Shown here in pieces: positions 18,692-32,000 of a stretch of 32,000 bases of DNA. Positions within the stretch are counted from its first letter, which is position 1. Each line of letters opens with the position of its first letter. Where the stretch lies: assembly GCF_008065095.1 (NCBI RefSeq), contig NZ_CP042911.1, positions 5,730,001-5,762,000 on the forward strand, written 5' to 3'. The stretch comes from Gemmata obscuriglobus. GTDB taxonomy: Bacteria; Planctomycetota; Planctomycetia; Gemmatales; Gemmataceae. The notes under the pieces were generated by a model that saw only the letters and a list, made by a program, of their open reading frames with translations, was not told where the DNA came from and ran no database searches. A program made the position numbers and the translations under genes.

Positions 18692-20773
18692 TCACGCGAC
18701 GGACGCGGCACGCTGGTCGGGGAAGTAAGAATCGAGGAGATCGAACGTCTGGCCGTCGAACCCCTTGACGTGGACCCGCCCGTTGATCTCGGCGGCGGCG
18801 AGGATGTCGTCCCCGTCCACCTGCACCGCCATCACGCCCAGGAACCGGTCCTCGAACGCGTCGAACGACCCGCGAGCGGCTCCGGTGCCCCCGTCGATCA
18901 CGGTGACGCGGGTGCCCTGCGCGACGACGAGGTCGGCCCGGTCGTCGCCGTCGAGGTCGCCGGCGGCGAGCGCGAACCGGGCGCCGCCGGCCCCGGCCAC
19001 GACGAACGAGCGGCTCACCGCGAGGATCGCCGGGTCGAACGCCTTGACGTGGGCCCCGGCCGCCGCGCCGGCAGCGACGATCAGCTCGTTGCGCCCGTCC
19101 CCGTCGGTGTCGCCCACGGTGGCCGCGACCGCGCCGCGGTAGCCCTCGAACGCGAAGAAGCTCGCGACCAGCCCGCCGGTGGCCCCGTCGAACACCTTGA
19201 CGTGCCCGTTGGTGTCGGCGGTGACGACCAGGTCGGCGACCCCGTCACCGGTCAGGTCGCCGGCGCCCAGGTGGAGCCCGCCCCGATACCCGTCAAACGC
19301 GAAGAAGCTGTGGGCCTCGGTCCCGGTGGTCCCGTCGAACACCTTGACGTGCCCGTCGGCCCCGGTGACGACGTCGGCGGTTCCGTCGGCGGTCATGTCG
19401 GCGGCGGTCGTGACCACGCGCCCAGCGTACCCGGTGTACGGGGTGACCGTCGCGCGGGTCGTGCCGTCGGGGTTGAGCACGCGGATGGTGCCGGTGCCAT
19501 CGGGCGCGTTCAGTACCGGCCCTGGTACCGGAGACGGTGAAGGCGTGGGGGCCGGTGAAGGCGCGGGATCCGGTCCCGGCGGCGGCGGAGGAGGTGGCGG
19601 AGGCGGCGGGTCGGACAGCAGCACCCCGCGCAACTCGAACGCGCCCGAGCCGTCGGGGCTTGCGAACACAACCAGGCTCTGGTTAGCGGCCGCGCCCAGG
19701 CCGAGCGAGTACGACTCGACCGCCGTACCCGAGAGCGTAACTGCGGCCCCGACCGGCGCCCCGGCCGCAGAGAACGTCTCGGCGACCAGCGCCCCGGACG
19801 CGAGCGCGTACACCACCACCGTGTTGCCCGCGGCGTCGGTCCGGGCCGAAAGTGGCGCGGTGCCGCTCACCCCGGTCGCCAGCACCACCTGTGGGTCCAG
19901 TGTGGGGCTGCTGCTGGTGTACGTGACCGCTCGCGCGACCAGTTGGTAGGTGCCGCCCGAGTCCTCAACAGAGATCACCCGCCAGGCGTCCGCGCCGGGC
20001 GCGCGGGTGATGACCGGGGCGACCGCCGCGGTGAGGGTCAGGCTGGTGGATGCTGATATTAAGCTCCCACCCGCGCGCCGGAACGGGGCCGTGCCCCCGA
20101 CCCCGGACAGCAACGTCCCGGAGACCAGCGCGTTGCTCGCATCACCGAACTGGGCCGTCGGCAGGAGCGCACCGGTCGAACTGATGCTGGTGGTGGTGGT
20201 CGAGGCGGTGTCGGTGAACGCGTTATAAACCTGGTAGTCGAACCGGTGCGTCAGGCCGTCGCTGGTTGTTTTCCGGTAGGCCACGAGCACGCTCCCGGTG
20301 TCGGAAAGGCTAACGACCGGGAGCGATTCGACGCGGGTCGCCACGCCGACCGCGCTGACGGTGCCGACCGGGGTTCCGTCGGCCGCGTACCGCTGGAGCC
20401 CGATGTCGGTGAGGCTCCCGCTGTCCGGGAGCTGGTCGAACGCCACGACGAACCGGCCGGTCGGGTCCATGTCGACAGCGACCCGCGCCGGGGTGCCGGC
20501 GGTGACCGGCACCGTGGCGACCGCGAGGGGCGCCCCGAGCGCGGCCCCGGCTGCGTCGTACAGCCGGGCGTTCACGGTCGCAGTACTCGTCATGGCGTCG
20601 GTGTCCGCCCACGCGACGACGAACTGCTGGCCGTTGCCGGCCACTGCGACCGACGGGTGATCGGCGCCGATGCCGCCGGCAGTCGCCAGGACGCCGAGGA
20701 ACTGGGCCGGAACGTCCCGGGGCTCAAGCGGCTCGAGTCCGAGGCGCGCGGGGGCGGGGCGGCGGGTGGCCAT
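18692..20773 (-). CDS. FG-GAP/VCBS repeat protein with degenerate N-terminal repeat modules and a proline-rich linker
   Basis: The C-terminal third has repeated DxxGDGxxDLVV...HVKVFDG units (for example DLTGDGVADLVVTADTNGHVKVFDGATG). The linker PPPPPPPPPPPGPDPAPSPAPTPSPSPVPGP separates it from an N-terminal region with repeated FVVA...YxAxG modules. I prefer the ATG at 20773 (MATRRPAPARLGLEPLEPRDVP). Confidence 0.75.
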   Translation of the reverse strand: MATRRPAPARLGLEPLEPRDVPAQFLGVLATAGGIGADHPSVAVAGNGQQFVVAWADTDAMTSTATVNARLYDAAGAALGAPLAVATVPVTAGTPARVAVDMDPTGRFVVAFDQLPDSGSLTDIGLQRYAADGTPVGTVSAVGVATRVESLPVVSLSDTGSVLVAYRKTTSDGLTHRFDYQVYNAFTDTASTTTTSISSTGALLPTAQFGDASNALVSGTLLSGVGGTAPFRRAGGSLISASTSLTLTAAVAPVITRAPGADAWRVISVEDSGGTYQLVARAVTYTSSSPTLDPQVVLATGVSGTAPLSARTDAAGNTVVVYALASGALVAETFSAAGAPVGAAVTLSGTAVESYSLGLGAAANQSLVVFASPDGSGAFELRGVLLSDPPPPPPPPPPPGPDPAPSPAPTPSPSPVPGPVLNAPDGTGTIRVLNPDGTTRATVTPYTGYAGRVVTTAADMTADGTADVVTGADGHVKVFDGTTGTEAHSFFAFDGYRGGLHLGAGDLTGDGVADLVVTADTNGHVKVFDGATGGLVASFFAFEGYRGAVAATVGDTDGDGRNELIVAAGAAAGAHVKAFDPAILAVSRSFVVAGAGGARFALAAGDLDGDDRADLVVAQGTRVTVIDGGTGAARGSFDAFEDRFLGVMAVQVDGDDILAAAEINGRVHVKGFDGQTFDLLDSYFPDQRAASVA

Positions 20774-20881
20774 GGGATGGTCCGTGTCCTGATGGGGCCA
20801 GCCGACGGGCCGGCGCATACAGGACTTATCGTGCCGGGCGGCGAGCAATTGCGGGGCTTATGGCTCGCGCGTTCGCGCCGC

Positions 20882-21784
20882 TCACCCCGCCCGCAGCGCG
20901 ACGGAGCTTTCGACCCCGAGGTTCTGGTAGATCAGGCGCGTCGCGTCGGACTTGTTCAGGGTGTAAAAGTGAATCCCGCGGATGTTGTTGTGCAAAAGGT
21001 CGGCGCACTGCTCGGTGGCCCAACTGATGCCCACCCGGGCCACCGCCGTGTCGTCGGCGCAGCGGCTCACCGCCTTTAACAACTTGGCCGGTATGCGCGC
21101 GCCGGCCGCCAGGTCCGCCATCCGGACCATACCAGCCTTGGTGGTGACCGGCATGATACCCGCGATGATCGGCACCTTGATCCCGGCCAAATCGCACCGC
21201 TCACGGAAGTCGTACAGGTCGCGGTTGTCGAAGAACAACTGGGTGCAGATGTAGTCCGCACCGGCGTCGATCTTACGCTTCAGGTGGTCCATCTCTTGGA
21301 GCCGGTTCGGGCACCCGGGGTGCCCTTCGGGGAACCCCGCTACACCCACACCGAACCCGCGGCCGTTCGGACCCGGGCGCGAGCGGATGAAGTCCACCAG
21401 TTCGTTCGCGTACCGGAACGCGTCCTTCTCGCGGTCGTGGGCGCTGTTCTTGGGTGGGTCACCGCCGAGCGCAAGGATGTTCTCGATGCCGCTCGTGGCG
21501 TACCGATCGAGTATCGCGATCATCTCGTCGCGGGAGTGGCACACGCAGGTGAGGTGCGACACGGCGGTGAGGTTGGTTTCGCGCTCGATGCGCACCACGA
21601 GGTCGTGGGTGCGGTCGCGCGTGGAACCGCCGGCCCCGTACGTGACGGACACGAACGACGGGTGCAGCGTCTGGAGCGCCGCGATGGTTGTAAACAGTTC
21701 CTCACCGGCCGCGTCAGTCTTCGGTGGGAAGAACTCGAAGCTGAAGGTGGTGCGGTGCTGAGCGAAGATGTCCTGAATGTGCAT
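20882..21784 (-). CDS. metF: Methylenetetrahydrofolate reductase
   Basis: FSFEFFPPKT, FVSVTYGAGGSTR, SHLTCV, NILALGGDPP and ICTQLFFD are all canonical MetF segments. The start is the ATG at 21784, with an alternative at 21808. Confidence 0.93.
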   Translation of the reverse strand: MHIQDIFAQHRTTFSFEFFPPKTDAAGEELFTTIAALQTLHPSFVSVTYGAGGSTRDRTHDLVVRIERETNLTAVSHLTCVCHSRDEMIAILDRYATSGIENILALGGDPPKNSAHDREKDAFRYANELVDFIRSRPGPNGRGFGVGVAGFPEGHPGCPNRLQEMDHLKRKIDAGADYICTQLFFDNRDLYDFRERCDLAGIKVPIIAGIMPVTTKAGMVRMADLAAGARIPAKLLKAVSRCADDTAVARVGISWATEQCADLLHNNIRGIHFYTLNKSDATRLIYQNLGVESSVALRAG

Positions 21785-21866
21785 AGCGGCTACAAGCGTG
21801 GGGTCCAACCCGGAACGGTTTGTACCTTGACAGTGTATTCAAATTGCCGCGCCGAGATAGGCGAAG

Positions 21867-24407
21867 TTATGGTGCGCGCTTCGGGAACAGGACAGGGAGT
21901 GTCGGAACGGTCCCAGCGGTCGGGACGAGTTTTACCCCGGAAGCCGGCTCAGTCCCGCCCCCGGGCTTTGTGAGTCGCGGCTCGTGAGTCAGGCGGTCGA
22001 ACTGAAAAACGCTTGTCGGACCGGTGTCCCACAGCAGGTTCAACTCCCGCGCACCGGCGCGGACCGGCAGTTCCGCACGGAGCGAGTCTCCCGCTCGGTA
22101 CGACAGTTTCGTCGGCCCGTCCGGCACGAGCGGGTAAACCGTCGTGGTGCCCCGAACCGTTCCCTTGCCGACCGTGAACTTTGCCGTCGCCCCCTGCCCC
22201 CTGTGGGTCACAGTGATCGTGAACGGCCCGACGGGCTCGACTCGCTCGAAGGTGAGGTCGAGCGGAACCGCCAGTTCGAAGCCGCGCGGGTCCAGCTCGA
22301 ACGTCTTTTTGTCAAGGTCTCGCAGGAGCACGGCCAACTCAGTGACCGGGTCAGGGACGTTCGGGTTTTGCAACTTCGCCAAGAGGTGCAGGAACCGGCC
22401 CCAATCGCGGAACCGTGGCTCCGCCAGCGTGGCGCCCAATGCGTTCCAGCCGGCAAGGGTGTCCTCGACCCGCATCAGCTTTTGGGTGTGACGAACACCG
22501 TTTACGAACGACGTTTGTAGCAGGCCGGTGATCTCGCCGCGCACCGGGTCCGGAAACCGCCACGCTTCCCACTCTGCATAATCGGCGGACTGTCGCGGGT
22601 AAGTTCGGGCGAGGGTCGCCAGTCGCTCTGCCGGGTCGGCGCCGCCCGACTCGGGCAGGCTCAGCACCGCCGGCGGTCGGTCCGGAGCGCGCACCAACCC
22701 AAGTGCGTCGAGCAGGTCGCGCAGGTGAACGAGTAAGTCGCGGGTCTGCTCCCAATACCGACGCGCCCGGTACACCTCGTCGAATTCGAGCGGCACCTGG
22801 TACGTGATCGCCTCCCCGCGCGGCTGCTTGAGTTCGGGTGAACCAGGGATCGGTTCCTCGGGAGGAAAAGGTGATTGTGTGTCCCGTGTCAATAGCGCGT
22901 CCAGGTCGCGGATCCAGCCCGCGTCGAACGTGCGCTTCAGCGTCAGCTCCGTGCCCGCGCGGTCGCGATCACGGTACCGGTCCACGCACGCCTGCTGCGC
23001 CGCTTCGAGGGCGGCGCAGTCGGCGAGCCACTTGTCACGGAGCTGTGCCGCCGCAGTCTCCCCCCAGGAGTATTCGCCCGGGAGGGCGAGCGCGGTTTTC
23101 AGTGTTTCGCGGATCTGTACCAAATCGGGCAGGCTCCGGGCTGACACTGGCGCCGTCGCGCCGGCCAGCCGCGCGCGGTACGCGAGGTAGTCGTCGATCT
23201 CTTTTAGCCGGCTCTCGACGAACCCTCGCCGGTCGTTCGAGAGCGAGCGGAACGCCGCATCGTTGGCGAACCGCCGCAACGTCTGGCGGTTGCGGTCACG
23301 TTCTGGGTCGGACAGGCGCACCGCCGCCGGGGGTTCGTGTAGCTCGTAGTCGTCGACCCGCGCCGCGAGATCGGGCGCGCTACCCTGGGGCGGGAACAGC
23401 GCGATCGACCCGAACGCCAGGACGAGGAAGCACAGCGCGGTAAGTGCGGCGCGCACGGTCCACCAGAGCCGGGCCTCGGACCGGCGGTGCCGCTCGTGGT
23501 GCGCCTTGGCGGCCGCGAAACAGTCGCGGAACAGTTCCGCCACAAGATAGGGTTCGTCCGCAGGCGTCGGCGCTTCGAGCAGCGGCGGGGGGCGGAGCGC
23601 GACCGCGGCCACCGTCAGGTCGATGCTCCCGAATGAGAGGAACGGAGCCGCCGGGGCGTCGCCGTGGTCGGCCTCTTTGAGGAACTCGTCGAACTCCGCC
23701 CAGGCGTAATCGACGCGGTCCGCAACGCGGGCCTCCCACTCCCGACGTGTGTCACCCTTCTGAGCCAGTCTGTCGCACTGCGTTAGGACCAGGAACACCG
23801 GGAACCCGCCGACCGTCCGCGCGTCTGTTTTCGCCCGTTCGACGGTTGTGAGGAACGCGTCGAACGCCTTGAACGCTTCCGCCAGTTGCGCCCGGGTGCT
23901 GGCCGCATCGACGAGGAGCACGATGGCGTCGGTCTCGACCACCGCGCGGGCCAGTTCGCTGTCGGGGTGACGCTGGGTGATCGGCTCGGAGTGTCGGATC
24001 AGGTCTTCGGCGGCCTTGCCGTCGCAGTCATCAAGGATCACCGTGAGCGGGTCCGAAACGGCCCGCGTGCCGACCCGCCAGGGGCGTAGCCGGACGGTAA
24101 AACTCGTCAGCTCGGCAGAGCTGGATTCGAGCGTGCCGCTGTAAGCGGCGTCGCGTATGAGTGGCAGTTCGGGCGAAGTAGGTACTACCTCCCCGCGGAG
24201 AGTTTCGCCCTGCACTTCGCCGGCGCGCATTAGCGCGCCGATCAGCGCGGATTTGCCCGCGCCGCGGTGCCCAAACAGCAGCACACGGGGAGCATCGAGC
24301 GGTAGACTGCCGGGGTGCGAGGCCACGCGCGTAACCTCCGTCCGTGGTGGCCGCGTTACGGGTGGTCGGTTCGCGGCATCGGTCGGGGCCACGCCCCGAC
24401 ATCTCAT
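21867..24407 (-). CDS. Membrane-anchored P-loop GTPase-like protein (846 aa) with a large C-terminal domain of unknown function
   Basis: G1 is GHRGAGKS (24249-24272), G3-like is DCDG (24018-24029) and G4-like is TQCD (23772-23783). AIVLLVDA lies between G3 and G4. One predicted TM helix, WWTVRAALTALCFLVLAFGSIALF, lies at 23394-23465, followed by about 500 further residues ending in a beta-rich segment. The ATG lies 1 nt after the stop of the upstream gene. Confidence 0.7.
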   Translation of the reverse strand: MRCRGVAPTDAANRPPVTRPPRTEVTRVASHPGSLPLDAPRVLLFGHRGAGKSALIGALMRAGEVQGETLRGEVVPTSPELPLIRDAAYSGTLESSSAELTSFTVRLRPWRVGTRAVSDPLTVILDDCDGKAAEDLIRHSEPITQRHPDSELARAVVETDAIVLLVDAASTRAQLAEAFKAFDAFLTTVERAKTDARTVGGFPVFLVLTQCDRLAQKGDTRREWEARVADRVDYAWAEFDEFLKEADHGDAPAAPFLSFGSIDLTVAAVALRPPPLLEAPTPADEPYLVAELFRDCFAAAKAHHERHRRSEARLWWTVRAALTALCFLVLAFGSIALFPPQGSAPDLAARVDDYELHEPPAAVRLSDPERDRNRQTLRRFANDAAFRSLSNDRRGFVESRLKEIDDYLAYRARLAGATAPVSARSLPDLVQIRETLKTALALPGEYSWGETAAAQLRDKWLADCAALEAAQQACVDRYRDRDRAGTELTLKRTFDAGWIRDLDALLTRDTQSPFPPEEPIPGSPELKQPRGEAITYQVPLEFDEVYRARRYWEQTRDLLVHLRDLLDALGLVRAPDRPPAVLSLPESGGADPAERLATLARTYPRQSADYAEWEAWRFPDPVRGEITGLLQTSFVNGVRHTQKLMRVEDTLAGWNALGATLAEPRFRDWGRFLHLLAKLQNPNVPDPVTELAVLLRDLDKKTFELDPRGFELAVPLDLTFERVEPVGPFTITVTHRGQGATAKFTVGKGTVRGTTTVYPLVPDGPTKLSYRAGDSLRAELPVRAGARELNLLWDTGPTSVFQFDRLTHEPRLTKPGGGTEPASGVKLVPTAGTVPTLPVLFPKRAP

Positions 24408-24408
24408 G

Positions 24409-25059
24409 TTACTCAAACCTGTTTTGAATGCCCGCTTCTTGCACCCACGCGGTGAGCCGCTTCATTTCGGGGTGGGTGGTAGACAAGCGGTCCTTGGCGA
24501 ACCGAAACACCAGTACCGGCGCGGGCTTGTCCTTCGGGCGCTCGGCGACAGCTTTCTTCAGTTCGTCGAGCGTACGCGGCGTCGGGTCACCGTCGAACAC
24601 GTAGAACTTGGCGTCACTCACGTCCGCGCCGCTGAGGATCGAAACGCGCACGTCACCCGGAGTGGGTTTCGGTTCGACCTTCGGCTCGATTTTCGGCGGC
24701 TCGGTTTTCTTATCGTCCTTCGGAGGTGCCGTGGGTTGTTGCTGCCGGTTCTGATCGTCTCCGGTGCTTTTCAGCTCGCCCCCGCCCCCACCGCCGAACA
24801 GTCCGCTGCCGCCGGACCCGAATACGATCAACGCCACGACGATCGCCGCCAGCACGCCGCACAGCAGTCCGCAGAGGCTCTTGAGTTGCGCCGGGGCCTT
24901 GTGCGCGAACACCCACCGGTCGAGTGCCCAAGCGATCAGCCGGCCGCCGACGTAGCCGGCCAGGAAGCCGCCGCCGACGGCCAGCGCTTTGATGACGAAC
25001 TCGGCCAGTTTGTTCGACGCCGCGGACGCGATGCCGTCGGCCAGGAGTGTGTCGAGCAT
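24409..25059 (-). CDS. TonB/TolA-like membrane protein: two hydrophobic helices, a Gly-rich then Pro/Lys/Glu-rich linker, and a small C-terminal alpha/beta domain
   Basis: The helices are ALAVGGGFLAGYVGGRLIAWAL and LCGLLCGVLAAIVVALIVF. The linker reads GSGGSGLFGGGGGG...PTAPPKDDKKTEPPKIEPKVEPKPTPG (24652-24819). The C-terminal domain of about 80 aa reads VRVSILSG...FYVFDG...VLVFRFAKD. It sits between the ExbD-like gene and the GTPase gene. Confidence 0.55.
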   Translation of the reverse strand: MLDTLLADGIASAASNKLAEFVIKALAVGGGFLAGYVGGRLIAWALDRWVFAHKAPAQLKSLCGLLCGVLAAIVVALIVFGSGGSGLFGGGGGGELKSTGDDQNRQQQPTAPPKDDKKTEPPKIEPKVEPKPTPGDVRVSILSGADVSDAKFYVFDGDPTPRTLDELKKAVAERPKDKPAPVLVFRFAKDRLSTTHPEMKRLTAWVQEAGIQNRFE

Positions 25060-25078
25060 GGGGACCTCGGGCGCGGCG

Positions 25079-25591
25079 CTACTGGAACTCGTGCGGCACG
25101 TCGCGGAACCAGTGGTGGATCTGATCTTCCTGCTTCTTAGTCGGGAACCCGCTCGGGTTCTGGGGGTACAGAATCAGGAAGAACACGTCCTTCACCCCGC
25201 CAGACTTGCTCGCCAGCGTTTTCTGGTGGGCGATGAGGCGCTGGGCGTCGGCTTCGGTGCGAATCTCCTGCCGGTCGGGGTCGAAATAGTAGAGCGTGCC
25301 GTCCTTGCGGTCGGTGTGCAGCACCCGGACCACCAGCCGGTCTGTGACGCGTGCTTGAGCGGCCTTTTCCATGCGCAGCAGCCGGTCGCGGGCCTCCGTC
25401 AGTTGCCGCTGGAGCTCGCGCACGTCCGCGGAAAGCGACTCTTTCGGTGGTGCGGCCTTCTCCTCCGGCACGTCGGCCGACTGGGTGCCGCCCACGAACG
25501 GCATCAACAGGAAGATCCCGAACAGCAGGATTAGCACGTCGATGAACGGCACAAAGAACCGCGTCACGGCGCGGCGGGGCGGCGCGATCAC
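25079..25591 (-). CDS. ExbD/TolR-family biopolymer transport protein (divergent)
   Basis: The N-terminal TM segment has the conserved acidic residue, FFVPFIDVLILLFGIFLLMPF. A coiled-coil-like segment (ADVRELQRQLTEARDRLLRMEKAAQ) follows, then a periplasmic-domain-like segment (LVVRVLHTDRKDGTLYYFD...VFFLILYP). The GTG start overlaps the upstream stop (GTGA at 25588-25591). Confidence 0.65.
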   Translation of the reverse strand: MIAPPRRAVTRFFVPFIDVLILLFGIFLLMPFVGGTQSADVPEEKAAPPKESLSADVRELQRQLTEARDRLLRMEKAAQARVTDRLVVRVLHTDRKDGTLYYFDPDRQEIRTEADAQRLIAHQKTLASKSGGVKDVFFLILYPQNPSGFPTKKQEDQIHHWFRDVPHEFQ

Positions 25592-26118
25592 GACTTTCCC
25601 TCGCGCGACTCAACAGGGGCCGGCGTGCCCGCCAGCGAGCGGATCAGGTCCCGACCGATGGTGACCACCCACACCGGCAGTATGTTGATGAACGCCATGT
25701 ACAGCCCTCCGCCGGTGGCGGTGATCGCGGGCGCGTATTTGCGAATGATCTCCTGCGGGGTCGGGTTGGCGCCGGGGGTGATCGAGTTAAAGGTTTGCAG
25801 GATCGCCGCGACGGTGCCGATTAGCCCCAGCAGCGGGAACCACTCGGCCGCCTGGCACAGGTTCCCGAGCCAGCGGTCGGCCCGCAGGTCGAAGTCCGTT
25901 TCCTGCCACCGCAGCGCGCGCCACGCGAACGCCGTTTGCACGGTGAAAAGGGTGAACCCGATGGCGATGATGATCCAGTCGATGGGGGACTCGGCGACTC
26001 GCGCGAGGTAGTCGCGGCGCGCGTCGGAGGGCACCGCCACAAACACCAGAGCCGCCGTCAGCACCGGGACCGCGGCGAACACCAACGGCAGCACCTGATG
26101 GATCCAGAGCCGGCGCAC
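25588..26118 (-). CDS. MotA/TolQ/ExbB proton-channel family protein (short, divergent)
   Basis: FPLLGLIGTVAAILQTF followed by ITATGGGLYMAFINILPVWVV resembles the conserved last two helices of ExbB/TolQ (PLLGLLGTV ... TT..GL). Four hydrophobic segments are present. The GTG start at 26118 is preceded by GGAGG. Confidence 0.72.
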   Translation of the reverse strand: MRRLWIHQVLPLVFAAVPVLTAALVFVAVPSDARRDYLARVAESPIDWIIIAIGFTLFTVQTAFAWRALRWQETDFDLRADRWLGNLCQAAEWFPLLGLIGTVAAILQTFNSITPGANPTPQEIIRKYAPAITATGGGLYMAFINILPVWVVTIGRDLIRSLAGTPAPVESREGKS

Positions 26119-26271
26119 GGAACCTCCCCTCGCGAGCGGCCGATTCCTCCGGCCGTGAACGCATTAACGGTAGTCGACAGGCCCGCCAGGATAAACGGGG
26201 GCGTGAAGGCAAGGGACGTCTTTTTTGTTACTGTTTATCTTGGCGGGTCCGTCAACGCGTCCGGTTGCGCA

Positions 26272-26658
26272 TCACTTCGCCTCCGCAAGCCATGCGGGCA
26301 TCTCACGGAGCTTGCCGTCACGGCCAACGCACGCGAGTGTGGTGAGCCCCTCTGCGATCAGGACGGCGCCCCGGAACACCTCGTACTTGTGCTCGAGGCG
26401 CACCGGCGAGGTGCGGGTCACCGTGGTGCGGATCGTGAGCACGTCGTCGTAGTGCGCCGGGCTCTTGTACTTCACCTCGGCTTTCGCCACGACCAAAAAG
26501 AACCCCTGGTCTTCCAGTTCCTTATACGACTCCTGCCGCGCGCGGAGCAGTTCCGTGCGGGCCTGCTCGAAGTACACTAGGTAGTTCGCGTGGTGCAGCA
26601 GCCCCATGCGGTCGGTCTCCGCATAACGCACGCGGATCTGAATTTCACCGGTCAGCAT
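26272..26658 (-). CDS. YbgC/FadM-type acyl-CoA thioesterase (4HBT hotdog fold)
   Basis: IQIRVRYAETDRMGLLHHANYLVYFEQARTELLR contains the catalytic Asp context typical of YbgC-like thioesterases. The start is the ATG at 26658, with an alternative GTG at 26670. Confidence 0.85.
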   Translation of the reverse strand: MLTGEIQIRVRYAETDRMGLLHHANYLVYFEQARTELLRARQESYKELEDQGFFLVVAKAEVKYKSPAHYDDVLTIRTTVTRTSPVRLEHKYEVFRGAVLIAEGLTTLACVGRDGKLREMPAWLAEAK

Positions 26659-26727
26659 CTCGGACCTCACAAACGGCCCGCTCGGGCCGGGCCAGTCACG
26701 CGCCCCGTCGCCCGGCGGCGCGGGCGA

Positions 26728-28554
26728 TTACTTGATGAACCCGACGCGGTTCTTTCCCGGGGTCGGTCGGACCGGCGGCCAGCCGAGCTTCCAGTCGAGG
26801 TACAACGGGAAGAACACGAACACCGCCTTTCCCAACATGAGTCGGTCGGGGACGGTCCCCCAGGAGCGGCTGTCGGAACTGGCCGCGCTGTTGTCGCCCA
26901 TGCAGAAGTAGTGCCCGGGCTGCACATAGTAGATGTCGCCCTCGTTGTAGTTGGGCGACGGACCGGAACCCGCGGGCGACCGCAGGCTGAGCGGCAGCGG
27001 GCTGGCGTCCGGGTCCGCGTACTTGGAGCTCTGATCGCGGTTCCAGGTGTAGTAAATGTCGCGGTGCAGGGTGATGTGCCGGACTGTGGCCCCGCCTTTC
27101 GCACCGATCCCGGCCGGCGCCTCCACGTCGTTGGCCCTAATCCACCCCTCTCTGTTGGTGTCGAACTCGTCGTAATCGGTCTCCTTGAGCGGCGTGCGCT
27201 CGTAATCGGCGGCGCCGCCGAAGTCGATCCGCTGACCATCCACCCACACCCAGAGCCGGGCGTCCACGTTGGCGAACCGGAGCCGGTGCGTCCCGGCGGT
27301 CACCGCGCAAGGCCGAGCGCTCAGCTCGGCGTTCTGGCCACCGGACCGCGTGAGTGTGACCTTCCCGTTGCCGAAGGTGGCGCGGAACCGGTCCATTCCG
27401 CGCGACAGTTCCAGGGAGACCTCGGCACCGGGCGCCAACTCGGCCTCGCACTCCAAGATCAGGTCGCCGACCCAGAGTTGCTCGTCGGACTCGGTGGGGC
27501 GGCTGACGTTGTAACCCAGGAAGTTGTCGATGAGCCGGTCGGTGACCTTGGCCTTGTCGGTCGGCCACTCGCCCCGGAGGTGCCTGGCGTCGTCATCGTC
27601 CACACCCCGGCCGCGCTCCCCGACCCGCCACTCGGTGCGGGAGTGCCGGTACCGGAGCCAGTCCAAGCTGTCGCCCTTGTGAGCGAACGCGCGTGGGGCA
27701 GTCGGCGCGTCGGTGGTCCACGCCTCGGGCCGCTCCGGCGCGTGCCACCGCGGTCGGGCCAGTTGTGCGATGTCCTCCGGCTGTCGGTCGTTGTCCCAGA
27801 CGATTCGGCGGTCCGCGAGCAACTGCCCTTCCTCTTTCCGCACGATCCGGAAGCCGCCGTCAATGTGGGGGGGGAAGCCGGCGTTCCGCGACGCCTCGAA
27901 CCGCGCGACCGCCTGCGGGCTGTTCCGGTGCCGGAACCGGGGCTGCCACCAGTCCAGTTTCGGCGCGTCCGGGACGGGGTACGACAACGACGACGTGACA
28001 TACAGGTCGCCGCGGTGGACGGCCAAGGTTTCCCCTCCGGAGCCCATCATCCGCTTGATGTAGTTCTGGGCCGTCTGCTGCGTCTGCGGCGCCTCCGGGT
28101 ACTTGAACACCACCACGTCGCCACGTTCGGGTTCACGGAGGTGGTAGAGCGGTTTCAGCACCAGCACCCGGTCACCGCTGTTGTTACGCGGCCACTCCGG
28201 GAGGTCATCGATTTGCCCCCGGTGCCGGCAGTTGGGGCACACGTAATGCGTGAGCCGCACGAGCTTTCGGTTCTGTAGCGGGTTGTCCGGCGCGTCTCCC
28301 TCGACCTCGCTATGCGAGTTGAGCGGGAACGTGTGGCCGCACTTCGGACAGGGTATAATCTTCTGATAGCCGTAAAGCGTTTCAGCCATCGACCCGGTGG
28401 GGATGACAAACGCTTCGGTGATGAACAGCTTCAGCAAGAGAACCAGAACGACGACGAATACGATCGTCTCGACGACCTCACGGGCCGGATCGCGGTGCGC
28501 CTTTTTCTTCTCGTCTTCGGCGGTCTTGGCGGGATCGGCGGTCGCGGTTGGCAT
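26728..28554 (-). CDS. lepB: Signal peptidase I (S26), giant paralog 2 with a zinc-ribbon insertion
   Basis: Box B is VIPTGSMAETL, box C is GDVVVFKYP, box D is YIKRMMGSGGETL and box E is GDNSAASSDSRSWGTVP. A CPKC...CPNC insertion follows the catalytic Ser motif, and an insertion of more than 300 aa lies between boxes D and E. The ATG at 28554 is preferred over the GTG at 28659. Confidence 0.85.
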   Translation of the reverse strand: MPTATADPAKTAEDEKKKAHRDPAREVVETIVFVVVLVLLLKLFITEAFVIPTGSMAETLYGYQKIIPCPKCGHTFPLNSHSEVEGDAPDNPLQNRKLVRLTHYVCPNCRHRGQIDDLPEWPRNNSGDRVLVLKPLYHLREPERGDVVVFKYPEAPQTQQTAQNYIKRMMGSGGETLAVHRGDLYVTSSLSYPVPDAPKLDWWQPRFRHRNSPQAVARFEASRNAGFPPHIDGGFRIVRKEEGQLLADRRIVWDNDRQPEDIAQLARPRWHAPERPEAWTTDAPTAPRAFAHKGDSLDWLRYRHSRTEWRVGERGRGVDDDDARHLRGEWPTDKAKVTDRLIDNFLGYNVSRPTESDEQLWVGDLILECEAELAPGAEVSLELSRGMDRFRATFGNGKVTLTRSGGQNAELSARPCAVTAGTHRLRFANVDARLWVWVDGQRIDFGGAADYERTPLKETDYDEFDTNREGWIRANDVEAPAGIGAKGGATVRHITLHRDIYYTWNRDQSSKYADPDASPLPLSLRSPAGSGPSPNYNEGDIYYVQPGHYFCMGDNSAASSDSRSWGTVPDRLMLGKAVFVFFPLYLDWKLGWPPVRPTPGKNRVGFIK

Positions 28555-28646
28555 GCGGGCCTCGGTACGAGCAGAGCGAGCGTCGTTCGGTATTCGCTGG
28601 CGCGGGCGGTCAATTTCTGCGCGGTGGCCCGCGGTTGGGGAGCCTG

Positions 28647-30194
28647 TCAGTGCAGCCACCGGAGGCGGGACCAGTCGAGCGACTGGAACACGTGATCACG
28701 CCCGCCGACCGACACCCGACTCAGCCGGAGCGGTTGGTGAATCAGGAATGGTTTACCGATGAACGCGTCCTCCGGCACGCCCGGGTTGGGCCATTTCCGG
28801 CTGTCTTCGGAACTCTGGGTGTTGTCGCCGAGTACGAAATACTCGTGCCGGCCCAGCCGCGCCGGCCGGCTCCCGTGGTCGCGCTCGTCGGTGGTCGTGT
28901 AGTGGATGTCACGGCTCAGCTTCAGGTCGCGAACGATCACCTTGCACCCCCGCGCGGCGATCCGGCGGACGGGACGCGACTCCGGCGATCGGGGCTTCCC
29001 AACGGGGTCCAGATCTGCCGGGGGAATGACCATCCGCCCGTCGAGCGCAAGGGTGACCCGGCGGTCAACGAAGGCGAACTCGAGCCGGTGCTTGTTGCCG
29101 GGGGTGAGCGAGACACCGCCCGCAATGCCCAACCCGCCGCGGCCCTCCTGAACGAGCCGAGCCTGCCCCGCCCCGCGGGCGCCGACGCCGAGCTCCGCCG
29201 TTACGACATCGGCGCCGTCGGAGAGCCGGCACTCGAACGCCGCGTCCCCGGGCGCGCCGACCGCGGCGGCGACCTCGACCTCGCACGTGAGGTAGAAGTC
29301 GTGCGCGGCCGGCTCGCGGTCGCGGCGGATGGGGTATCCGTTGTACGCGTTCCACACGCGCACCGGCTCGGAGTCGCGCGCGTCCAGGTTCCAGTGCCGA
29401 TACCGCACCGCGGCGACCGCTTGCGGGCCGTCGGAAGCGTCGAGGACCAGCGCCCCGTCCTCGATTACGGGGCCGCTCGCCGCGCTGGCGCCGTGCGGAA
29501 GCCGCGGGTCGCCCGGTTCGACCAGCCACCGCGCGCTCCACCCGTCGGGCTTGGGCGCGAAGTTCATGTCGAACACCGGAACGAGAGTCTCCCGGAGTTC
29601 GGCCAGTCCCTTGCGTACCAGCACGTCGTTGGCGTACACGTCGCCGTCGCGGATGGTGATCACCTCACCGGGTAGCCCCACGAGGCGCTTGACGTAGGGT
29701 TTGCCGAACTCCGACCGCTTCGGGTTCGGGCACCGGAAAACGACCATCTCCCAGCGCCGCGGCGCGCGCAGGTCGTAGACGTTCTTGTCCACCAGGAGCC
29801 GGTCGCCGCTCAACTCGCGGGCCGCGGCCAGCGAGAGCGTCTGCTCGCAGTTCCAGCAGAGCACCTTGAGGAAGTGTTCGGTTTCGCTGCCGGAACTGGG
29901 GCGCCCGACGCGCGCCGTCGCGCCGCACCGCGGGCAGAAGCCGTCGCGGTGGTGCCCGCTGAGCGCCGGCGACATGCTGCCGGTCGGGACGCCGAACGGC
30001 TCAAGCGCCGCAGTGCGAACGACGAGAAACAGCCCGACGAACGCGGCCATCACCACCAGCCCCGCGCGGAACGGGGACACGTTCTTGGTGGGCGGCGGGA
30101 GTTCGGCGGTCGGCTCTTTGTGTTCCGCGCGTGGCGTGGGCGCCGCCCCGTCGGGGTCGCCCGGGTTCGTAGCGGGTGTCGGCGTGTCGGTCAT
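28647..30194 (-). CDS. lepB: Signal peptidase I (S26), giant paralog 1 with a zinc-ribbon insertion
   Basis: Box B is GVPTGSMSPAL, box C is WEMVVFRCP, box D is YVKRLVGLPGEVI and box E is GDNTQSSEDSRKWPNPGVP. A CPRC...CWNC insertion is present. It lies directly downstream of lepA. Confidence 0.85.
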   Translation of the reverse strand: MTDTPTPATNPGDPDGAAPTPRAEHKEPTAELPPPTKNVSPFRAGLVVMAAFVGLFLVVRTAALEPFGVPTGSMSPALSGHHRDGFCPRCGATARVGRPSSGSETEHFLKVLCWNCEQTLSLAAARELSGDRLLVDKNVYDLRAPRRWEMVVFRCPNPKRSEFGKPYVKRLVGLPGEVITIRDGDVYANDVLVRKGLAELRETLVPVFDMNFAPKPDGWSARWLVEPGDPRLPHGASAASGPVIEDGALVLDASDGPQAVAAVRYRHWNLDARDSEPVRVWNAYNGYPIRRDREPAAHDFYLTCEVEVAAAVGAPGDAAFECRLSDGADVVTAELGVGARGAGQARLVQEGRGGLGIAGGVSLTPGNKHRLEFAFVDRRVTLALDGRMVIPPADLDPVGKPRSPESRPVRRIAARGCKVIVRDLKLSRDIHYTTTDERDHGSRPARLGRHEYFVLGDNTQSSEDSRKWPNPGVPEDAFIGKPFLIHQPLRLSRVSVGGRDHVFQSLDWSRLRWLH

Positions 30195-30258
30195 TAGGAG
30201 CGCCGTTGGAAACTGCCGAAAGGGTGACCCGCTCCCGGTCCGCCGAAGACACCAAACG

Positions 30259-32000
30259 TCAGTCGTCCGATTCTAATACCGCGAGGAACGCCTCTTGCGG
30301 CACCTCGACCTGCCCGATCTGCTTCATCCGCTTTTTGCCCTCGGCCTGCTTGGCCCACAACTTGCGCTTGCGGGTGATGTCCCCGCCGTAGCACTTCGCG
30401 GTCACGTTCTTGCGCATCGCCGCGATGTTCTCGCGGGCCACCACGCGCGCCCCGATGGCCGCCTGCAGCGCGACCTCGAACAGGTGCCGGTCGATCTCCT
30501 CGCGGAGCTTTTTCAGCACCTGCCGGCCCCGCCGCTCGGCAGACGTCCGGTGGACGATCACCGACAGCGCGTCCACCTTCTGCCCGTGGACGAGGATGTC
30601 GAGCTTCACGAGGTCCGCCGGGCGGAACCCGAGCACCTCGTAGTCCATCGTGCCGTACCCGTGCGTCACCGACTTGAGCTTGTCGTACAGGTCGTAAATG
30701 ACTTCCGCGAGCGGCATCTCGTACACGAGGATGACGCGCTGCTGGCTCAGGTACTCGGTGCGGACGAAGGTGCCGCGGCGCTCCGTACACATGCCCATCA
30801 GGTCGCCGATGTTCCCGGCCGGGATCAGGAAGCTGATGCGCACGATGGGCTCGCGGAACTCCTCGATCAGCCCCGCGTCGGGCACCTCCTGCGGCCCGTG
30901 GACGGTGATCACCTCGCCGTCCCGCTTCTTGATCTCGAACGTCACGTTCGGGGCGGTCTGCACGAGGTTCAGCTCGCTGTCGCGCTCCAGCCGCTGCTGG
31001 ATGATCTCGCGGTGCAGCATCCCGAGGAACCCGCACCGGAAGCCGAACCCGAGCCCGTCCGACACCTCCGGCTGGAACGTGAAGGAGCTGTCGTTGAGCT
31101 TCAGCTTGCCGAGCGCCTCACGCAGGTCCTCGAACTCGTTGTTGTTGACCGGGAACAGGCCCGAGTACACCATCGGCTTCGGCTCTTTGTACCCCGCCAT
31201 CGGTTCCGCCGTGGGGGCGACCGCGTCCGTCACGGTGTCGCCGATGTTGACGTATTCGATGTTCTTGATGTTGGCGGTGAAGAACCCGACCTGCCCGGCG
31301 GACAGCTCGTCGACCTTGGTCGGCTCTGGACGGAACTGCCCCATCTCTGTGATGACGTACTCGCGCCCGGTGCGCATGAGCTTGATGCGCTGGCCCGGCT
31401 TCAGCACGCCGTCCATCATGCGGATGTAAACGACCACCCCTTTGTACGTGTCGAAGTGGCTGTTGTAGATGAGCGCTTTGAGCGGCGCGGCGGGGGAACC
31501 CGCGGGCGGGGGGACGCGGTCGATCACCGCCGCGAGCAGGTCCTCGACGCCGACGCCGGTTTTGCCGCTGACGCGCATGACCTCGTCGGGGTCGACCATC
31601 AGCGCCTGCTCCATCTCGCCGATGACGAAGTCCGGGCGCGCGTGCGGGAGGTCGATCTTGTTCAGCGTCGGAATGATTTTCAGGTTCGCGTCGATCGCGA
31701 GGAACGCGTTCGCGACGGTCTGCGCCTGCACACCTTGGAACGCATCGGCGAGCAGGATCGCCCCCTCGCACGCGGCGAGCGAGCGCGACACCTCGTAGTT
31801 GAAGTCGACGTGCCCCGGCGTGTCGATCAGGTTCAGCTCGTACTTCGTGCCGTTCAGCTCGTAGTAGACCGTGACCGGGTGCATGCGGATGGTGATCCCG
31901 CGCTCCCGCTCCAGGTCCATACTGTCGAGGGTCTGGGCCTTGATGTCGCGCTCAGACACCGCCCCGGTTTTAAGCAGGAACTGGTCGGCCAGCGTGCTCT
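30259..32000 (-). CDS. lepA: Elongation factor 4 (LepA), 5'-truncated by the window edge
   Basis: LDSMDLERERGITI, NLIDTPGHVDF and LNKIDL form the GTPase core, and the C-terminal LepA-specific region GYGTMDY...CYGGDITRKRKLW is present. My manual translation upstream of the track start continues in frame to position 32000 (STLADQFLLKTGAVSERD). Confidence 0.95.
   Translation of the reverse strand, partial: STLADQFLLKTGAVSERDIKAQTLDSMDLERERGITIRMHPVTVYYELNGTKYELNLIDTPGHVDFNYEVSRSLAACEGAILLADAFQGVQAQTVANAFLAIDANLKIIPTLNKIDLPHARPDFVIGEMEQALMVDPDEVMRVSGKTGVGVEDLLAAVIDRVPPPAGSPAAPLKALIYNSHFDTYKGVVVYIRMMDGVLKPGQRIKLMRTGREYVITEMGQFRPEPTKVDELSAGQVGFFTANIKNIEYVNIGDTVTDAVAPTAEPMAGYKEPKPMVYSGLFPVNNNEFEDLREALGKLKLNDSSFTFQPEVSDGLGFGFRCGFLGMLHREIIQQRLERDSELNLVQTAPNVTFEIKKRDGEVITVHGPQEVPDAGLIEEFREPIVRISFLIPAGNIGDLMGMCTERRGTFVRTEYLSQQRVILVYEMPLAEVIYDLYDKLKSVTHGYGTMDYEVLGFRPADLVKLDILVHGQKVDALSVIVHRTSAERRGRQVLKKLREEIDRHLFEVALQAAIGARVVARENIAAMRKNVTAKCYGGDITRKRKLWAKQAEGKKRMKQIGQVEVPQEAFLAVLESDD

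Follow-up and report, generated by a model that had tools for sequence, protein, structure and literature searches.

A Tol-like stator gene cluster of Gemmata obscuriglobus conserved together with the gene for a transmembrane GTPase

What does a stator of the Tol type do when the genes that follow it encode, in place of TolA, TolB and Pal, a large membrane protein with a GTPase domain? This question is raised by a stretch of 32,000 nt from Gemmata obscuriglobus (GC content about 66%; hereafter the window, within which all coordinates are given). Five open reading frames (ORFs) stand in a row there, on the minus strand like the other genes of the window whose positions are given below: a YbgC-type thioesterase, an ExbB-like protein, an ExbD-like protein, a 216-aa membrane protein and a GTPase of up to 846 aa. 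A preliminary description of the locus had named the same five ORFs, and the ORF listing of the window agrees with it on their positions. Each has tens to hundreds of conserved homologues, and a 4-nt overlap between the ExbB-like and ExbD-like genes is retained in 25 of 30 loci, so the ORFs are to be regarded as real genes and not as chance ORFs of GC-rich DNA. Our answer, held with slightly better than even confidence, is that they constitute a vertically inherited module of Gemmataceae-type bacteria, a Tol-derived motor driven by the proton-motive force (PMF) with the transmembrane GTPase as its output or its regulator.

The GTPase gene (21867..24407) encodes 846 aa when read from the ATG at 24407, 819 aa from a GTG at 24326 and 805 aa in the NCBI annotation; the 846-aa ORF, whose numbering is used here, is 100% identical to G. 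obscuriglobus C1280_09150. Its AlphaFold2 (AF2) model has a predicted local distance difference test (pLDDT) score of 86, reaching about 90 over residues 41-240. The cytoplasmic G domain (residues ~41-290, 23538..24287) carries the motifs G1 (GHRGAGKS, 46-53), G3 (DCDG, 127-130) and G4 (TQCD, 209-212). Among 232 members of the family, G46, G51, K52 and S/T53 are each conserved in more than 99%; D127 is kept in 223 of 229, G130 in 216 of 229 and D212 in 232/232. A Foldseek search of the full model against PDB returned SR-beta, YcjX, BDLP, G-alpha and Arl (E 1e-4 to 1e-3), and one against BFVD returned viral dynamin, Ran and Rab, with E-values of 1e-5 to 1e-3 over both databases. The G domain matched SR-beta, YcjX, G-alpha, Arl, Rab and EF-Tu with a Foldseek probability of 1.00; on the whole GTPase as query, the matches to YcjX, BDLP and SR-beta were weak, with template modelling (TM) scores of 0.13-0.18, and were confined to the G fold.

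A single membrane helix follows (residues ~318-340, 23388..23456; hydropathy peak 2.41 at 320-338). In the model it sits inside a long helix, 289-337, and because the flank on its N side is strongly basic (KAHHERHRRSEAR), the protein is assigned an N-in, C-out topology. The periplasmic part (residues 347-846, 21870..23369) is modelled as all-helical from 347 to 695, as a beta-sandwich from 702 to 830 and then as a C-terminal Pro tail, mostly with a pLDDT of 85-97, and it shows invariant residues along its whole length, including P835 and P838. Motifs, model, structural matches and hydropathy thus uphold the earlier call of a genuine G domain followed by a single membrane helix and some 500 residues on the far side of it; together they predict a bitopic protein whose cytoplasmic domain binds guanine nucleotides and whose periplasmic domain is large and conserved. 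The last 22 residues (21870-21935) form a conserved tail, ...GS.VP.LP.L.P, after the beta-sandwich, which could be a docking peptide, for example for an ExbD-like domain. We also considered a D-box-like flexible peptide just after the membrane helix and dropped it, as that stretch is confidently helical in the model.

To which family does this protein belong? No Pfam, NCBIfam, PADLOC or PDB sequence profile matched it at cut-off, and the matches obtained were sub-threshold or at the level of the P-loop. The window protein scored 11.5 against a cut-off of 21.9 for MMR_HSR1 and 16.4 against 27 for DO-GTPase2; the best E-values among 21 members of the family were 9.6e-4 and 3.2e-4, respectively. 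Neither the window protein nor these 21 members gave a dynamin or YcjX match in Pfam. The periplasmic part had no structural match among the best 50 Foldseek hits in each of PDB and BFVD. Profile and structure searches therefore assign the large protein to no known family and match its G fold alone. A profile search of 1.8 billion representatives found 863 clusters, 415 of them below 1e-30 and nearly all 780-860 aa long. Since almost all of these clusters are full length, the GTPase family is large and uniform, and it is unannotated.

The two genes upstream of the 216-aa gene provide the link to the Tol system. The ExbB-like protein (25588..26118, 176 aa) is a compact channel subunit of the MotA/TolQ/ExbB family. 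It matches PF01618 over residues 79-149 (E 5e-9; 36.4 bits against a gathering cut-off of 22.9), the same family that is precomputed for its homologues. A profile of 24 family members searched against PDB ranked TolQ first (0.0027), ExbB second and MotA third. With hhalign, residues 93-141 aligned to E. coli TolQ 136-186 (probability 87.5%, E 3.6e-6), placing the invariant T102 and T135 on TolQ T145 and T178, the ion-path threonines of the last two helices. Hydropathy segments at 9-27, 46-64, 96-114 and 136-159 give a MotA-like N-in topology. The TolQ/ExbB-like call of the preliminary description is thus supported, and the alignments indicate that the channel-lining helices and the Thr pair of TolQ/ExbB/MotA are kept. 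The protein remains below the TolQ equivalogs TIGR02796 (20.8 vs 221) and PRK10801 (12.4 vs 403).

The ExbD-like protein (25079..25591, 170 aa) has the layout of a TolR/ExbD/MotB-like subunit: a membrane helix with Asp18, a helical or coiled segment and a C-terminal domain of about 85 aa. In the family alignment the N-terminal helix PRRSVTRFFIPLIDVLILLF is nearly invariant and D18 is invariant. The hhalign match to E. coli TolR (E 2.6e-4) covers the helix only (TolR 18-40) and places D18 on D23. Searched against PDB, the family profile matched the helix of C. jejuni MotB (0.0067) and TolR (about 1). For PF02472 the window protein scored 11.5 against a cut-off of 25.4, and 18 of 24 members matched weakly, through the helix alone (best 0.0041). 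The earlier TolR/ExbD-like call therefore stands for the membrane helix with its invariant Asp, to which the resemblance is limited, and misses the Pfam cut-off. The predicted retention of the helix with the essential Asp, beside that of the channel helices and their threonines, indicates that the sequence hallmarks of a proton-conducting TolQR-type stator are present.

The 216-aa protein, here called Lnk (24409..25059; 100% identical to GobsT_48940), had been described as TonB/TolA-like. Its AF2 model (pLDDT 75) comprises a hairpin anchor (helices 3-49 and 57-81), a spacer of about 50 aa that is disordered over residues 84-121, and a C-terminal alpha/beta domain (137-215). The disordered spacer, counted as residues 83-136, is rich in Gly, Pro and Lys (11 G, 9 P and 7 K in 54 residues). 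The best Foldseek match of the C-terminal domain was ExbD 8vgc_A (TM 0.71, root-mean-square deviation 2.7 Å, probability 0.94, E 0.24), followed by 8vgd_B, 8p9r_A and TolR 5by4. The protein had no sequence match in Pfam, NCBIfam or PDB, and neither a TonB_C nor a TolA C-terminal domain was found with Pfam and NCBIfam. What survives of the earlier call is the general layout with a spacer; because the head is ExbD/TolR-like and the anchor has no conserved membrane Asp or His, the protein is TonB-like in layout only. A TonB/TolA identity was rejected for lack of a profile match and of a His helix, together with the ExbD/TolR best folds, and a reading of Lnk as a second Asp-bearing TolR paralogue was rejected because a conserved membrane Asp is absent. 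In its model, Lnk resembles an ExbD/TolR-like periplasmic domain carried on a flexible spacer. The C-terminal domains of Lnk and of the ExbD-like protein could be aligned to each other only weakly (E 0.012, probability 3.5%).

At the head of the cluster, the 132-aa protein encoded at 26272..26670 is a hotdog-fold acyl-CoA thioesterase of the YbgC/FadM type. It matches PF13279 (8e-17) and PF03061 (5e-14), exceeds the cut-off of TIGR00051 (92.5 bits vs 68.7) and is 42% identical to E. coli YbgC (E 4e-18), in agreement with the earlier YbgC-type call. For the tol-pal-specific equivalog TIGR02799 (thio_ybgC) it scored below the cut-off (97.5 vs 141).

How tightly are these genes joined? Read from the sequence, the junctions are as previously described: the stop of the ExbB-like gene overlaps the start of the ExbD-like gene in a GTGA at 25588-25591, the ATG at 25059 comes 19 nt after the ExbD-like TAG (25079-25081), the TAA of the 216-aa gene (24409-24411) is followed after one base by an ATG (24405-24407), and between the stop of the thioesterase gene and the ExbB-like GTG there are 153 nt. 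The preliminary description had deduced co-translation of the GTPase from the TAA-c-ATG junction; the junction is there, but its ATG is doubtful as the GTPase start in G. obscuriglobus. Homologues start about 14 residues before the P-loop strand, which is the position of the GTG at 24326-24324, preceded at an 8-nt spacing by GGAGG (24339-24335; together 24324..24339). The 27 codons upstream of this GTG are matched, among homologues, only by those of the 94%-identical G. algarum. The NCBI annotation uses yet another GTG, at V42. The sequence thus makes GTG 24326 a more likely start than ATG 24407, and it lies 82 nt further on, leaving a possible gap of 82 nt after the stop of the 216-aa gene. 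Given the starts of the homologues, the GGAGG-preceded GTG and the differing NCBI start, a 1-nt co-translation is uncertain here. Nevertheless, tight linkage to the GTPase gene is a trait of the family, as in most relatives this ORF begins about 1-20 nt after the preceding stop.

Scans for promoters, terminators, Rfam families and tRNAs yielded nothing useful, the terminator-like sites being at chance level. The 153-nt spacer between the thioesterase and ExbB-like genes (26119-26271), which is 2-60 nt long in many relatives, holds an AT-rich stretch, AAGATAAACAGTAACAAAAAAGACG, within an otherwise 66% GC region. This stretch may be an internal promoter; a sigma-70 scan found none.

We then asked whether the arrangement is shared. 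The comparison covered 39 genome loci and several metagenome contigs; the genome scan used two exact peptide patterns, and an ExbB-like profile search was followed for the best 120 of 2162 hits, all of them close relatives. Wherever the upstream DNA suffices, the order is lepB-lepB-thioesterase-ExbB-ExbD-216aa-GTPase, often with metF next. About 30 Gemmatales-type loci keep both order and strand, even at GTPase identities as low as 25-35%, in keeping with the synteny that the preliminary description had proposed to look for. In all 25 loci that hold the thioesterase gene it stands directly upstream of the ExbB-like gene and is co-directional with it. Inside the four-gene core, overlaps or spacings of a few bases prevail in most loci; at its outer edge, the gap between the thioesterase and ExbB-like genes is longer, at 2-185 nt. 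The position that tolB and pal occupy in a Tol cluster is taken by metF (MTHFR; 20882..21808, PF02219 3e-91), a conserved downstream neighbour that comes after the GTPase gene in 19 loci. In the conserved block, whether of the window or of related loci, there is no PD40/TolB or OmpA/Pal domain, consistent with the earlier statement that neither TolB nor Pal follows the GTPase gene.

Overall, conservation of the operon is strong and not absolute. The thioesterase and the ExbB-like protein evolve slowly, the GTPase and the 216-aa protein fast. After the neighbouring signal peptidase was regressed out, evolutionary distances still co-varied between the ExbD-like and 216-aa proteins (0.74), the ExbB-like protein and the GTPase (0.63), and the 216-aa protein and the GTPase (0.62), which is soft support only, since sequence pairs are not independent. 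Named records with the family are Gemmata, Frigoriglobus, Fimbriiglobus, Zavarzinella and unclassified Gemmataceae. Loosely labelled metagenome-assembled genomes also carry it; two of them, labelled Isosphaera and Singulisphaera, are placed inside the Gemmata-like range on account of their identities of 51-64%. The preliminary description had spoken of planctomycetes as hosts, which is too broad: as far as the searches reached, the family is seen in Gemmataceae-type genomes. In two long contigs (L042 and L043, samples ERZ25039465 and ERZ25039468) the homologous regions are split into many short ORFs and are uninformative, probably because long-read assembly introduced frameshifts and not because the genes have decayed. 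L042 also has an insertion sequence (DDE_3) after the cluster.

How might such a module work? In view of the ybgC linkage and the scores leaning towards TolQ, it seems to derive from the ybgC-tolQ-tolR portion of a Tol-type cluster. Gene order, motifs and models are the basis of our proposal. In it, the ExbB-like and ExbD-like proteins would form a proton-driven 5:2 motor in the inner membrane, which the 216-aa protein would join through pairing of its ExbD-like domain. The GTPase protein would replace TolA-TolB-Pal as the periplasmic output of the motor, and its GTP/GDP state would set when or where the motor engages, or relay the state of the periplasm to the cytoplasm. Such a gating logic would be comparable to the control of the Agl-Glt motor by MglA. 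The module would most likely act in the cell envelope, connecting outer membrane, peptidoglycan and inner membrane or reshaping them; specific roles in remodelling, budding or uptake are speculation. Tol-Pal has been reported to be largely reduced in Planctomycetes (PMC8871954), and output swaps do occur, as shown by the description of other TolQR-type motors with non-TolA transducers (PMC12204202).

Several observations weigh against this reading. The cytoplasmic loop of the ExbB-like protein measures only about 30 residues, so that the large cytoplasmic domain of TolQ/ExbB/MotA is missing. The ExbD-like protein falls short of the PF02472 cut-off, and Pfam and PDB profiles gave no assignment for its C-terminal 85 or so residues. 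The structural matches between the 216-aa protein and ExbD have non-significant E-values of 0.2-1, as expected for 80 residues, and neither the 216-aa protein nor the GTPase protein has an SHLS or conserved His docking motif in its helices. In the GTPase, residue 131 (24015-24017), the equivalent of Ras Gln61, is Arg or Lys in 148 of 229 members; an Arg/Lys after DxxG hints at a non-canonical hydrolysis mechanism or at a partner requirement. Three loci have the GTPase gene away from exbB/exbD: it stands alone in L027 (6962-9514) and L044 (7001-9412), and L030 (6344-9442) keeps just 216aa-GTPase-metF. A nucleotidyltransferase-like gene lies upstream in both L027 and L030, which suggests a single rearrangement in a sub-lineage. 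The block is moreover embedded in a longer housekeeping string, lepA-lepB-lepB ... metF, and gene order alone is for this reason weaker evidence than it appears; a complex of GTPase, 216-aa protein and stator is inferred from gene order alone.

These points lead to the simplest alternative, in which stator and GTPase are functionally unrelated, their order is a housekeeping order frozen within one bacterial order, and the GTPase works alone, with or without the 216-aa protein. The conserved block indeed reaches clearly unrelated genes on both sides, the three loci above carry the GTPase gene without adjoining exbB/exbD, and the GTPase start in the window perhaps lies 82 nt past the preceding stop. 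Against a frozen order speak the junctions, in most loci tight within the core and longer at its outer edge, and the residual co-variation of distances. The ExbB-like protein has no cytoplasmic domain of its own and the cluster offers no other candidate for the stator output, and in L030 the 216-aa gene with its ExbD-like domain stays beside the GTPase gene, linking both halves. We therefore consider this alternative unlikely. A shared function could still be that of a TonB-like energiser of outer-membrane import, for instance of macromolecules into the enlarged planctomycete periplasm, regulated by the GTPase. Similarity to the ExbB/ExbD type, a Pro/Lys-rich spacer like that of TonB and an ExbD periplasmic domain known to bind a TonB peptide (PDB 8vgc, 8p9r) speak for uptake. 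It is made quite unlikely by the missing TonB_C domain and SHLS/His motif, by scores that favour TolQ over ExbB, by ybgC linkage, which is a Tol trait, and by the absence of a TonB-dependent receptor gene from the conserved block of the window and of the related loci examined.

The neighbouring genes invite a different interpretation, protein export or membrane-protein biogenesis, in which an SR-beta-like GTPase acts with LepA and the signal peptidases and the stator supplies energy. The beta subunit of the signal recognition particle (SRP) receptor is the best Foldseek match of the G domain (E 1e-4), and the genes directly upstream, lepA and two for S26 peptidases, are conserved. This match, however, is barely above those to YcjX, G-alpha, Arl and dynamin-like proteins and covers the generic G fold alone, the cluster holds no SRP or Sec component, and lepA-lepB linkage is common in bacteria without any stator; we judge export very unlikely. 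Least credible, to the point of being nearly dismissed, is anti-phage defence of the Zorya type, with a MotAB-like stator sensing envelope perturbation and an NTPase as effector. Zorya does use a MotA/MotB-like 5:2 motor, and 9 of 21 members gave sub-threshold G-domain matches to DO-GTPase2 of conflict systems (best 3e-4). PADLOC, however, had no match for the other four proteins, the GTPase matching at P-loop level only (E 0.016); no nuclease or other effector domain is present, and the position across the family is a stable housekeeping one without signs of mobile elements. On this housekeeping context and the PADLOC result we rejected a defence island. The reading of a Tol-derived motor with a GTPase output or regulator is the one we retain.

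How does such a motor differ from known ones? Compared with Tol-Pal of Proteobacteria (YbgC-TolQ-TolR-TolA-TolB-Pal-CpoB), it shares the ybgC, tolQ-like, tolR-like order on one strand, the TolQ channel helices with the Thr pair, the TolR Asp helix, and TolQ as the best solved relative of its ExbB-like protein. By contrast, the locus lacks TolA (neither an SHLS/His helix nor the C-terminal domain), TolB, Pal and CpoB and has two new proteins instead, its channel subunit has 176 aa, four hydrophobic segments and almost no cytoplasmic domain, and the scores fall far short of the TolQ/TolR equivalog cut-offs. ExbB-ExbD-TonB belongs to the same PMF stator superfamily, with an ExbD-type periplasmic fold and a partner in which a Pro/Lys-rich spacer follows a membrane anchor and leads to a small C-terminal domain. 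The 216-aa protein differs in ending in an ExbD/TolR-like domain and not in TonB_C, and in its helical-hairpin anchor without His, and no TonB-dependent receptor gene lies near the module.

The nearest precedent for GTPase-gated motor logic is the TolQR-type Agl-Glt gliding motor of Myxococcus xanthus, whose engagement depends on the nucleotide state of MglA (PMC11135422). MglA, however, is small, soluble and encoded elsewhere, and acts via adaptors such as GltJ, whereas in Gemmata the G domain belongs to a product of the stator operon itself and shares one polypeptide, across a membrane helix, with a periplasmic domain of 500 aa; Glt-type proteins are absent. Also close are the vWA force transducers encoded beside tolQ and paired tolR-like genes in Planctomycetes, Verrucomicrobia and other groups, where a TPR gene is present and the output, a vWA protein, bears either an SHLS helix or an Asp helix like that of TolR (PMC12204202). 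Both arrangements have a TolQ-like gene followed by two differing TolR/ExbD-like proteins and a non-TolA output, but the module in Gemmata has no vWA or TPR, its second TolR-like protein lacks the Asp and its output carries a GTPase, a word absent from the paper on the vWA transducers (PMC12204202). Finally, YcjX, BDLP and other dynamin-like proteins, FeoB and SR-beta likewise have a TRAFAC-type G domain attached to or acting at the membrane; none combines it with a single helix and a large periplasmic domain, and none is encoded with a stator.

What is new, as far as the sources searched show, is the architecture of G domain, membrane helix and 500-aa periplasmic domain, and its fixed pairing with a stator. 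Neither the GTPase protein nor the stator-GTPase combination is described in the literature searched, and Pfam, NCBIfam, PADLOC and PDB hold no such family, so the earlier statement that this is not a described system holds for these sources. The component superfamilies are already known, and homologues appear in databases as "MotA/TolQ/ExbB family" and "GTPase domain-containing".

Motors of the 5:2 type (TolQR, ExbBD, MotAB) power outer-membrane constriction, nutrient import, flagella, gliding and phage defence, and each new output protein has revealed another use of the same engine. Gemmata and its relatives are without FtsZ, divide by budding, have unusually folded inner membranes and are reported to retain just a remnant of Tol-Pal. 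For such bacteria, without the standard Tol-Pal and FtsZ systems, the module is a candidate envelope machine that can be put to the test, although its known distribution is narrow. It is conserved, compact and genetically tractable, with Asp18 of the stator and Lys52 of the P-loop as targets for point mutants, and the periplasmic domain of the GTPase adds a sizeable new fold family of about 860 sequence clusters without annotation. A far bolder proposal, which we regard as distinctly improbable, is that a rotary proton stator mechanically coupled to a transmembrane GTPase switch drives or positions membrane and wall remodelling in the FtsZ-less budding Gemmatales. Possible sites for such a machine would be bud-neck constriction, the deep inner-membrane invaginations and macromolecule uptake. 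If true, prokaryotes would have their own counterpart of GTPase-controlled membrane remodelling, with ion flow as its source of power.

The genes on either side deserve a brief account. Upstream lie lepA (30259-31959; Pfam LepA_C and GTP_EFTU), part of the conserved context, and two genes for S26 signal-peptidase-like proteins (28647-30194 and 26728-28659; Pfam Peptidase_S26). Their order, lepA-S26-S26, recurs in related loci, and all three (26728..31959) are probably outside the module. The tandem signal-peptidase-I-like proteins are unusually long, with 515 aa (28647-30194) and 643 aa (26728-28659), and near the N-terminus of both lies a Cys-rich insert resembling a zinc ribbon (weak zf matches); the pair stands between lepA and the thioesterase gene in nearly all related loci. 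On the other side, between metF and the gene for gamma-glutamyltranspeptidase (GGT), an FG-GAP repeat protein of 718 aa that includes 12 consecutive prolines is encoded at 18692-20848. As two related contigs have GGT right after metF or after the GTPase gene, the FG-GAP gene looks like a lineage-specific insertion.

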